IMG/VR virus record: IMGVR_UViG_2698536687_000008
Span: 1-40,799 of that record
Source: a virus
Lineage: Duplodnaviria; Heunggongvirae; Uroviricota; Caudoviricetes
Length of the DNA: 40,799 nt
Direction: 5' to 3' (one strand)
Shown here: positions 33,506 to 35,778 of the stretch, in pieces
How the letters are laid out: every line of letters starts with the position of its first letter
How positions within the stretch are numbered: position 1 is the first letter of the stretch
The notes under the pieces: generated by a model
The model's input: the letters and a program-made list of their open reading frames with translations, nothing else
Database searches by the model: none
Told to the model about the DNA's origin: nothing
Made by a program: the position numbers and the translations under genes

Positions 33506-34222
33506 ATGGAAAATAAAAAATCACTGACGACAGAACAGCTGGAAGACGCTAAGCGGCTTAAGGCTTTGTATGAGTCAAAAAAGAAAGAATTGGGGATAAC
33601 CCAATACTCAATCGCTGATGAACTGGGTATCACCCAAGGAGCGGTAGGCCATTATCTTAATGGCAGAAATGCGCTAAACGTTGAGGTTGCATCTGGTTTT
33701 GCACGATTGTTGCAAGTCTCAATTGCTGATTTTAGCCAGTCAATTGCTGCCAAGGTTGCAGAACAGGCAGAAAGCCTTAAGAGCGATGCCAACGTAAGGT
33801 ATGCAGGGGAATACAGAGCAGGAAAGAGGTATCCGGTGTTAAGCAGTATCCAGGCTGGCTCGTGGTGTGAAGCATGCGAACCATACACCATTAAAGACAT
33901 AGATGTTTGGCTTGAGTCTGACGCGCATATTCAAGGTAATGCGTTTTGGCTTAAAGTGGAAGGTGATTCAATGACGGCACCGGTTGGGTTAAGCATTCCA
34001 GAGGGAACATTCGTTCTTTTCGATACCGGAAGGGAGGCGATCAACGGCAGCTTGGTCATAGCAAAACTTTCTGACTCTAACGAAGCAACATTCAAGAAGC
34101 TGATAATCGACGGCGGAAATAAATACCTCAAGGGACTTAACCCTGCATGGCCTCTCGTGCCAATCAATGGAAACTGCAAGATTATAGGCGTTGCAATTGA
34201 GACAAAACTAAGGCTGGTTTGA
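33506..34222 (+). CDS. cI: CI repressor (HTH plus S24 LexA-like autopeptidase domain)
   Basis: 238 aa; N-terminal HTH (QYSIADELGITQGAVGHYLNG) and C-terminal GDSM serine motif; divergent from cro. Confidence 0.9.
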   Translation: MENKKSLTTEQLEDAKRLKALYESKKKELGITQYSIADELGITQGAVGHYLNGRNALNVEVASGFARLLQVSIADFSQSIAAKVAEQAESLKSDANVRYAGEYRAGKRYPVLSSIQAGSWCEACEPYTIKDIDVWLESDAHIQGNAFWLKVEGDSMTAPVGLSIPEGTFVLFDTGREAINGSLVIAKLSDSNEATFKKLIIDGGNKYLKGLNPAWPLVPINGNCKIIGVAIETKLRLV

Positions 34223-34239
34223 TCACGCAAGGGGCGCTT

Positions 34240-34608
34240 ATGGTTGGAACCGCTATAGCAAGCTTTTTTGGGATGTTGGCAATCTCGACAATTTACGGCT
34301 TAGCGCATGCTTTTATTGCGAAATCTCTATCAGAAAAAATAAGCCAGGCTTGGGCGCATAGATCAGCTCGTTTCATGATTCTGGTGATCATAGCAATACA
34401 AGGGATATCTGCATTTATCCTCTATGGATCAAGCTTATACCTATTGTATCAAGGCGCGACATTTACGCCTTACACCAGTGATTACGGAACTCTATACGAT
34501 GGTAGTGAAGACATCTCTATGGCTTGGATTGTCTTTGGTTTATCTATGGCCGTGTCTGTTGTAGCAGACATCATTAAGGTAATTCTCGTCTTAACCTTCG
34601 CTGACTAA
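34240..34608 (+). CDS. Small polytopic membrane protein downstream of cI (rex-position moron; candidate exclusion function)
   Basis: ATG 34240 with RBS AAGGGG; about three predicted TM helices; no resemblance to RexB noted. Confidence 0.6.
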   Translation: MVGTAIASFFGMLAISTIYGLAHAFIAKSLSEKISQAWAHRSARFMILVIIAIQGISAFILYGSSLYLLYQGATFTPYTSDYGTLYDGSEDISMAWIVFGLSMAVSVVADIIKVILVLTFAD

Positions 34609-34739
34609 CCCATAATCCCGGCAGCAATAGCTATCGGGATCCACTTCACATATCCCGCATAAAAAGCACTGAACAAGCAGACACCGAAAAAATAAATATC
34701 CTTTGTATTCATTTGCTTATCATTATTTCACCAAAAATA

Positions 34740-34781
34740 AATACCTTGGGTATTTACACAATAAAATACCTACAGTATTCT
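34740..34781 (+). promoter_or_regulatory. OL operators and pL promoter
   Basis: AATACCTTGGGTATT (34740-34754) and AATACCTACAGTATT (34765-34779), same half-sites as OR; -35 TTTACA 34753-34758 and -10 TATTCT 34776-34781, 17-bp spacer. Confidence 0.5.
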
Positions 34782-34826
34782 TTAGCCATCAGCAGGACGC
34801 TGGAAGCCAAACGGAACAGATTGGCA

Positions 34827-34867
34827 GGCTCTTTAACATTGATGGGATTGTCCCGCCGAAATGCGGG
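34827..34867 (+). promoter_or_regulatory. nutL (boxA GGCTCTTTAACA plus boxB CCCGCCGAAATGCGGG)
   Basis: Same boxA/boxB pair as nutR, downstream of pL and upstream of N. Confidence 0.65.
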
Positions 34868-35039
34868 AACCAAAGAGTAGTTGGCTTTGGGGTGTGGTGA
34901 AGGGTTCATGGACGGGAATATGTCGCACGTAAAGCGGCGAGGCCTGCGGGACCATTGCCGAATTGAAGTCGGACGAAGCGGGTCGAAATGGGTCTCCCAC
35001 CTACCACACCACCAAAGCTAATCATCTGAGGAACAGAAA

Positions 35040-35159
35040 ATGTTAGACATCATGACCAACCCAATTCTCGGTGGTTTAGTTACCACATTCGCCATCTGCT
35101 TCGGTTTCACTATCTGGTCTGAAGTAGATGACTGGATGTGGGAACGCAAAAACAAATAA
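35040..35159 (+). CDS. Hypothetical 39-aa single-TM peptide between nutL and N
   Basis: RBS GAGGAACAGAAA then ATG; MLDIMTNPILGGLVTTFAICFGFTIWSEVDDWMWERKNK. Confidence 0.35.
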   Translation: MLDIMTNPILGGLVTTFAICFGFTIWSEVDDWMWERKNK

Positions 35160-35199
35160 TCATCGACACACAAGGATGTGTACCTTCCCGGAGGTCAAC

Positions 35200-35499
35200 A
35201 TGACAGTAGTCATTACATATCTGGCTGACGATAACGCCAGAAATCGCCGCAGAGCACGCAGACAGGCTCAACGTGAGCAGGCAATGCAAGAGCAGCGACT
35301 GGCGCGAAAAATTGCGCTAAAGCTCTCTGGTTGCGTCAGAGCAGACAAAGCAGCATCACTAGGAAGCCTTCGCTGCAAGAAGGCAGAAGAAGTCGAGCGT
35401 AAACAGAACCGTATTTACTACAGCAAGCCACGCAGTGAAATGGGTGTGACTTGTGTTGGTCGCCAGAAAATGAAATTAGGCAGCAAACCACTTATTTGA
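35200..35499 (+). CDS. N: Antitermination protein N
   Basis: ATG 35200 after GGAGG; arginine-rich motif NARNRRRARRQAQREQ; C-terminus ERKQNRIYYSKP...CVGRQKMKLGSKPLI parallels lambda N. Confidence 0.8.
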   Translation: MTVVITYLADDNARNRRRARRQAQREQAMQEQRLARKIALKLSGCVRADKAASLGSLRCKKAEEVERKQNRIYYSKPRSEMGVTCVGRQKMKLGSKPLI

Positions 35500-35577
35500 G
35501 GTGATATATGGAAGAAGAATTTGAAGAGTTCGAAGAGCATCCTCAGGATGTGATGGAACAATACCAGGACTATCCGT

Positions 35578-35778
35578 ATGACTACGACTATTGATACAAA
35601 TCAATGGTGTGGACAATTCAAGCGATGCAATGGATGCAAGCTGCAATCGGAATGCATGGTTAAGCCTGAAGAAATGTTTCCTGTAATGGAAGATGGGAAA
35701 TATGTCGATAAATGGGCAATACGAACGACGGCAATGATTGCCAGAGAACTTGGTAAACAGAACAACAAGGCTGCCTAA
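35578..35778 (+). CDS. ral: Restriction alleviation protein Ral
   Basis: 66 aa, MTTTIDTNQWCGQFKRCNGCKLQSEC..., near-identical to lambda Ral from memory. Confidence 0.8.
   Translation: MTTTIDTNQWCGQFKRCNGCKLQSECMVKPEEMFPVMEDGKYVDKWAIRTTAMIARELGKQNNKAA

Follow-up and report, generated by a model that had tools for sequence, protein, structure and literature searches.

The early-left operon of lambda-type phages is a textbook transcription unit in which the antitermination gene N is taken as the first gene, and we know of no cistron between nutL and N in phage lambda. Some small phage products invite comparison: lambda Kil and Rac KilR are host-directed peptides made from the pL operon in lytic development only, Kil having to our knowledge no transmembrane helix, and the T4 proteins Imm and Sp (83 and 97 aa) are early small exclusion proteins of the inner membrane. 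In lambda, the N protein attached to nutL represses the translation of its own gene, acting across a structured leader (Wilson 1997, 2002, as summarised in PMC5725501). According to the same summary, the spot equivalent to the leader helix described below is occupied in lambda by an RNase III-sensitive structure; cleavage of the helix itself would be proposed by analogy only.

The window analysed here is a stretch of 40,799 nucleotides from a virus of the Caudoviricetes. It shares with the lambda N leader the order of promoter, nutL, large leader helix and N, and differs from it in that a putative 39-codon gene holds the initiation site by the helix, N following about 160 nt downstream with a new Shine-Dalgarno sequence (SD). 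Like the morons of lambdoid phages, the segment that carries this gene is a discrete insert, present or absent, with sharp junctions and conserved flanks, whereas it has neither promoter nor terminator of its own and would be expressed from pL in lytic growth rather than in the prophage. The peptide resembles Kil and KilR as a small pL-operon product expected in lytic development only, but Pfam and NCBIfam searches gave no match to this division-inhibitor family and no sequence relation to it. Expected early expression, size class and predicted membrane location recall T4 Imm and Sp, both of which are larger than the peptide. AcrZ, MgrB, Hok, Ldr and TisB are similar in size, in having a single transmembrane helix and in binding or perturbing membrane proteins, as may be envisaged for the peptide; no family match links it to them, and no antisense RNA or toxin-antitoxin layout was seen at the locus. 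A minority of lambdoid prophages carry the frame of a conserved, putative membrane peptide ahead of N.

The early-left region of the window

The immunity and early-left region is P22/HK620-like and lies on the + strand. Its features up to N are the following:

33506-34222, + strand: cI-type repressor (Peptidase_S24 and HTH match)
34219-34608, + strand: 129-aa hydrophobic ORF (phrog_6534, labelled as of unknown function in PHROG)
34753-34758 (-35, TTTACA) and 34776-34781 (-10, TATTCT), + strand: pL promoter (promoter scan; collinear with the annotated HK620 pL)
34827-34868, + strand: nutL, with boxA CTCTTTAAC at 34829-34837 and the boxB hairpin TCCCGCCGAAATGCGGGA at 34851-34868 (alignment)
35028-35032, + strand: SD GAGGA of the small ORF, 7 nt before its ATG
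35040-35159, + strand: putative small gene, 39 aa, product MLDIMTNPILGGLVTTFAICFGFTIWSEVDDWMWERKNK (ATG ORF, family match, coding constraint)
35200-35499, + strand: antitermination gene N, 99 aa (phrog_271, E = 5e-37; weak Pfam N_peptide match)

The pL and nutL elements are collinear with, and nearly identical to, those of HK620, and in the alignment nutL is identical to the annotated HK620 nutL. The N product carries the arginine-rich motif NARNRRRARR and its start agrees with that of HK620 N. From the stop of the small ORF to the start of N there are 40 nt, and from nutL to N about 331 nt. In the promoter scan, pL is the sole promoter-like site upstream of the small ORF, and a terminator scan of 34500-35600, which includes the span from pL to N, found no terminator-like site on the + strand.

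Much of what the initial annotation had described was recovered. The ORF and its peptide are present exactly as it quoted them, the ribosome-binding site that it mentioned is the GAGGA listed above, and the nutL that it placed at 34827-34867 matches that of HK620 base for base. It had put the ORF on the pL transcript upstream of N, where it lies, and the immediate expression that it proposed fits the absence of a terminator-like site between pL and the ORF. Its leader of 330 nt stands as regards length, although not as a plain leader, since 34883-35019 forms a conserved structured helix with a variable apex.

The 129-aa ORF overlaps the stop codon of the cI-type gene and is the positional equivalent of HK620 hkaS. 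The lysogen presumably transcribes it along with cI, and it is a candidate for an exclusion-type function; the PADLOC models gave no match to it. Near the left end of the window lies a tRNA-Arg gene (cct; 1009-1083; 63.4 bits with Rfam, also found by ARAGORN), which, followed as it is by phage genes, suggests that the window is a prophage adjoining a tRNA attachment site.

A constrained reading frame and its protein family

Sixty-eight ORFs of at least 20 aa overlap one 3.5-kb stretch of this region, so that the length of the small ORF alone is not beyond chance and the case for a gene rests on comparison with other sequences. Leaders were collected from complete E. coli genomes, from IMG/VR and metagenome contigs by means of degenerate DNA patterns, and from contigs encoding the matches of a pattern-free HMM search among 1.84 billion representative proteins. 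The comparison set holds 39 loci, with 12 nucleotide alleles, 10 peptides and at least six N-type proteins downstream. The frame is exactly 39 codons long, with zero indels or stops, in all 39 homologous loci. By the summed Nei-Gojobori ratios, pN/pS is lowest in this frame (0.26); the two remaining sense frames have 1.05 and 1.93 and the three antisense frames 0.47, 0.94 and 1.30. The variable alignment columns are distributed over codon positions 1, 2 and 3 as 15, 6 and 29. The substitutions are specific to this frame, most of them being synonymous, out to a nucleotide divergence of about 30% and without indel, and the synonymous excess is found even within single allele pairs (down to p = 3e-5). 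In five diverged leaders whose flanks otherwise differ, GGAG or GAGG is present 7-11 nt before the ATG. The initial annotation had proposed as a check the conservation of the frame, with synonymous weighed against non-synonymous changes, and the frame passed it. On these comparative grounds, the 39-codon ORF is very probably a translated gene.

The DNA patterns by which most loci were retrieved fixed the last nine codons and left the first 30 free, so that the invariance of these last nine is partly a matter of ascertainment; the same C-terminal tail was recovered by the pattern-free HMM search. Two truncated copies (P0005 and P0006) both occur in rearranged contexts, the truncated ORF abutting erf, with N missing, in locus L030 and abutting integrase genes in locus L031. 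In closely related alleles the 3' half of the ORF hardly varies, synonymous sites included, and behind this there may be an RNA-level role or recent recombination. A 12-bp hairpin with invariant stems and a variable loop is also predicted within the ORF (35107-35141; CACUAUCUGGUC / GACUGGAUGUGG). Its 3' arm consists mostly of Trp and Met codons, and its invariance may therefore stem from the protein.

The peptide matches the PHROG family phrog_7482 (E = 8.1e-25, 87.5 bits), its residues 1-39 aligning with the first 39 of 46 profile positions, and a diverged lambdoid allele matches it at 1e-22. Gp86 of Shigella phage Sf18, a virulent Mooglevirus, where it is annotated as "putative membrane protein", scores 1.6e-29 against the same profile, and a 45-aa Avunavirus gene (peg.130) 6.6e-24; the other members include Michonne gp114-like relatives in Mooglevirus. 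These virulent-phage members are annotated small genes of 45-46 aa that have their own SD and stand in co-directional arrays, no N-type gene coming after them. A PHROG scan of seven neighbours of Sf18 gp86 assigned them all to families labelled function-unknown, so that the context offers no clue. Lambdoid and virulent-phage members have in common the start M-[LI]-[DE]-I-x-x-N-P-I-L-x-G, a hydrophobic helix at residues 9-26, an acidic E..D motif behind this helix and a basic end. The lambdoid members differ in being 39 rather than 45-46 aa long, in their Trp-rich tail (WSEVDDWMWERKNK) and in a glycine-rich, less hydrophobic helix; they are located in the N leader of temperate phages, whereas the virulent-phage members belong to small-gene arrays.

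When the ORF region was compared with 50,697 GenBank phages by blastn at distant sensitivity, no DNA match was obtained, and tblastn on the same collection retrieved virulent-phage homologues only, at about 35% identity; the lambdoid version is in none of these phage records. A plasmid search gave no match to the small ORF, and among GTDB representative contigs no related locus was confirmed, the degenerate DNA pattern giving 0 matches. That phages of two such different kinds share the protein while their DNA shows no similarity is the strongest argument that the product matters. Diverged lambdoid copies of about 70% identity (P0009-P0011) were also recovered. In loci L027 and L028 the copy has a cI-type repressor on one side and on the other the following early-left gene, which in L027 matches Pfam N_peptide; the contig of L029 ends before any neighbour.

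GenBank entries for the exact peptide (BCT63437.1 and others) name it "putative membrane protein" or "hypothetical protein"; it is encoded on 800 contigs, and 31 of the 5426 complete E. coli genomes carry the segment. What was already known is a deposited hypothetical protein and a family that had been defined computationally, with its function label unknown; the lambdoid member is new to this family and occupies an unusual position of regulatory interest. E. albertii RefSeq has a version of 61 aa extended to a GTG, and in three inspected prophages the RefSeq pipeline left the ORF uncalled, which counts against its being a gene; if it is one, it provides a clean example of a small gene overlooked by standard RefSeq annotation. 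A literature search on phrog_7482, on a small membrane protein upstream of N and on a tRNA-like element at nutL found nothing relevant. At 90% identity, the peptide falls in a cluster of N proteins (P0018/P0019), a placement that reflects a clustering artefact and no fusion. The representative and most members of that cluster are N proteins of 99-101 aa, and the cluster would hide the peptide from cluster-level searches.

The peptide is made of a short N-terminal tail with the conserved NPIL-G, the hydrophobic helix and a Trp-rich, charged C-terminal tail that runs to RKNK. Over residues 9-26 (an 18-mer), the mean Kyte-Doolittle value is 1.9 for the window peptide, 1.7-2.0 for lambdoid members and 2.3-2.8 for virulent-phage members; the hydrophobicity of the lambdoid members is only moderate, which counts against a membrane location. 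AlphaFold models one continuous helix over residues 8-38 (pLDDT 82). The one hydrophobic helix of the peptide agrees in both predictions with the single transmembrane segment that the initial annotation had suggested, and insertion into a membrane is likely on these models. From the basic C-terminal end, a trait of most members, the topology would be N-out/C-in. Positions G12, T/S16 and A18 of the helix hold small residues of the kind typical of helix packing. Searches of Pfam, NCBIfam, PADLOC and PDB with the peptide gave no informative relative: at E up to 1, Pfam yielded nothing but a chance-level TrbC match, and 0 families of the PADLOC defence and exclusion models matched. A lipoprotein was considered and rejected, the residues F-A-I before Cys20 forming no lipobox and Cys20 being replaced by Gly in most alleles.

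The leader helix and the cassette

The elements that surround the small ORF are the following:

34883-35019, + strand: N-leader structured RNA of about 140 nt (fold and covariation)
35019-35026, + strand: left copy of the 8-bp direct repeat TAATCATC, cassette boundary in this leader type
35157-35164, + strand: right copy of the direct repeat TAATCATC, overlapping the TAA stop codon
35168-35181, + strand: small hairpin ACACA-AGGA-TGTGT, between the ORF stop and the SD of N
35190-35194, + strand: SD GGAGG of N, cassette-borne in the P22-type N background

The leader is predicted to fold with a minimum free energy of -66 kcal/mol (z = -3.85). Its basal helix of about 17 bp pairs 34883-34899 with 35002-35019, with one bulged purine, and encloses an apex of about 100 nt. 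This helix was found in six of eight leader types and bounds the N leader of HK620, HK140, 933W, Stx2_EH1904, L003 and L028, with the consensus G[CG]UUUGG-GGUGUGGUG / CACCACACC-bulge-CCAAAG, the upper 9 bp of which covary; compensatory changes on both sides are seen at five of these nine upper-helix positions. The apex measures about 40 nt in HK620, 100 nt in the window and about 230 nt in L008, and that of the window is 95% identical in 933W, where it lies just upstream of N, and in more than 180 Stx phages. Rfam models, applied to the whole window at gathering thresholds and to 34600-35300 at E up to 10, gave no family for the leader or the ORF.

A CCAAA[G/C] box at 34870-34890 offers the 5' arm of the helix, [C/G]UUUGG, an alternative partner instead of the distal CCAAAG. 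The G/C position varies jointly in both boxes across leader types, and the upstream box may be an element of alternative folding. In the L002-type leaders (L002, from an E. coli EC20 prophage, and L018, L021 and L022), the apex is a tRNA gene located between nutL and the small ORF, at 2401-2482 of L002. It scores 38.2 bits with Rfam, for a gathering threshold of 29, and is called tRNA-Pro (tgg) by ARAGORN and "tRNA-OTHER" by PGAP, with an anticodon loop of 15 nt and a C1-A72 mismatch. Such an apex could be a processing signal (RNase P) in place of an RNase III site.

Next to this helix, the small ORF, the small hairpin and a spare SD for N form a cassette, which is absent at exactly this site from HK620, 933W and SH2026Stx1. 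In HK620, CAATCATC occurs once and the SD of N comes immediately after it; in both HK620 and 933W this SD lies 8-10 nt past the helix, a slot that is filled in the window by the SD of the small ORF. SH2026Stx1, which represents the P22-type N background, reads ...CACATGAGGAAAATATC-ATG(N), whereas L002 and L003 read ...CACATGGAGAAAAGAAA-ATG(small ORF), then the hairpin, then GGAGGTCATC-ATG(N). Relative to the helix, the SD of the small ORF is positioned as that of N is in all three phages with an empty site. Both independent comparisons of empty and filled sites (HK620 and 933W with the window; SH2026Stx1 with L002 and L003) lead to a mobile unit composed of ORF, hairpin and spare SD, placed so that N stays translated. 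The small hairpin is kept in all alleles, its closing pair being A-U in three sequences and G-C in three, with both sides changed, and in lambdoid phages the small ORF always ends 38-57 nt before N. Family membership in phrog_7482, the presence or absence of the cassette and the location of the ORF in the slot beside the helix where N originally started had all been missed by the initial annotation. The filled and empty sites in two N backgrounds amount to a natural experiment on the way in which N control depends on where translation starts with respect to nutL and the helix.

Other inserts were seen in the same leader. HK140 (locus L046, 650-870) carries between the helix and the SD of N an unrelated insert of about 210 nt, flanked by CAATTCC repeats, that holds an AGGAGG-ATG-TGA mini-ORF and a GC hairpin, and in Stx2_EH1904 (locus L047, 570-825) boxB is separated from the helix by another unrelated insert, of about 270 nt. 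Judging by these sequences, the N leader appears to be a hot spot for insertions. On the - strand of the window, the cassette hairpin with a T-rich run (35165-35184) is the sole terminator-like site of the region and could halt antisense transcripts arriving from the N side. In window-type and L002-type cassettes, 24 open codons precede the accepted start of N in its frame, probably incidentally, with in-frame ATGs at 35128 (in the small ORF) and 35176 (in the hairpin). A longer N isoform starting at either ATG was rejected, the extension being absent in L027 and L028.

Proposed function and competing explanations

We hold it moderately probable that the ORF is a genuine, cassette-borne gene for an immediate-early, single-pass inner-membrane peptide acting in trans. 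It would be the first cistron of the early-left transcript, with translation starting immediately 3' of the N-leader helix. Because no terminator-like site separates pL from the ORF, the product is expected with or before N, antitermination not being needed; it would be made at once on infection or induction and be absent in the repressed lysogen. If made, it and N would be the only phage proteins to appear ahead of antitermination, and it would be a candidate for the first contact of the phage with the host envelope. As modelled, it would be a bitopic peptide of 39 residues with its short N-terminus outside, a transmembrane helix at residues 9-26 and an amphipathic, Trp-rich RKNK tail in the cytoplasm. 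It would act by helix-helix packing with a host inner-membrane protein, in an early function of host takeover or protection. Action in trans is inferred from the conservation of the amino-acid sequence, from the different setting of the virulent-phage members and from the small-residue positions of the helix. The gene would have arrived in lambdoid phages as a compact cassette inserted between the SD region and the start codon of N.

The most substantial competitor is a cis-regulatory upstream ORF, of which the translation across the leader, and not the peptide, would matter, by keeping Rho off or by altering the control of N through nutL and the helix. This explanation would account for the position of the ORF in the very initiation slot that N itself uses in HK620, 933W and SH2026Stx1, for its constant spacing of 38-57 nt before N and for the arrival of a covarying hairpin and a new SD of N in the same cassette; it also accords with the repression of N translation by nutL-bound N across the structured leader of lambda (Wilson 1997, 2002, as summarised in PMC5725501). 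We nevertheless judge it unlikely, since the amino-acid sequence is under purifying selection, the virulent-phage homologues stand alone among small genes with no N-type gene after them, and a pure upstream ORF need not keep a transmembrane helix and the NPIL-G and E..D motifs across about 65% divergence; moreover, 40 nt is a long distance for coupling by termination and reinitiation. A role as upstream ORF and a role of the peptide in trans are compatible and not mutually exclusive, and by analogy with lambda the cassette may shift the translational control exerted by N at nutL from N onto the small ORF.

Two further explanations deny the peptide altogether. The frame might be untranslated and persist through youth, spread by recombination or an RNA constraint, such as the hairpin at about 35107-35141 or a processing site, for which speak the near-identical 3' half of close alleles together with the invariant 12-bp hairpin predicted there, as well as the lack of RefSeq annotation and the truncated copies P0005 and P0006. 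Against this stand the frame-specific, mostly synonymous changes that accumulate to about 30% nucleotide divergence without an indel and the homologues detected at the protein level with no blastn-detectable DNA similarity; the 3' arm of the hairpin, mostly Trp and Met codons, has no synonymous freedom, so that its invariance follows from the protein, and truncation is confined to the rearranged contexts of L030 and L031. This makes an untranslated frame very unlikely. Still less credible, to the point of being extremely improbable, is that the real gene is an antisense ORF of 51 aa with a TTG start (35018-35173, - strand), which is open in all alleles with a pN/pS of 0.47-0.57 and has a weak AAGG before the TTG. 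Its open frame and low pN/pS are the mirror effect expected when antisense and sense codons have their wobble positions in common, and the sense frame scores better (0.26). The scan found no promoter-like site on the - strand, from which such a gene would be read against pL; its product matched none of the families tested, and the counterpart frame of the virulent phages has no conserved start.

To return to the membrane peptide acting in trans, it is somewhat more plausible that it acts on a host envelope or membrane protein than on N expression. Any single named role, be it exclusion, division block or counter-defence, is doubtful when taken on its own. That virulent phages of Shigella, E. 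coli and Citrobacter have homologues points to an early function of a general kind. A broader scenario, in our view rather unlikely, is that of a membrane effector common to Ounavirinae, Vequintavirinae and lambdoid phages which in the latter, by occupying the initiation site at the helix, has also captured control of the N/nutL and RNase III type, rewiring N autoregulation; a single cassette would then combine a trans-acting product with an effect in cis. As for division, an otherwise identical prophage with an identical leader has a separate kil gene annotated further downstream in the same operon, which would make a second division inhibitor unnecessary, though possible.
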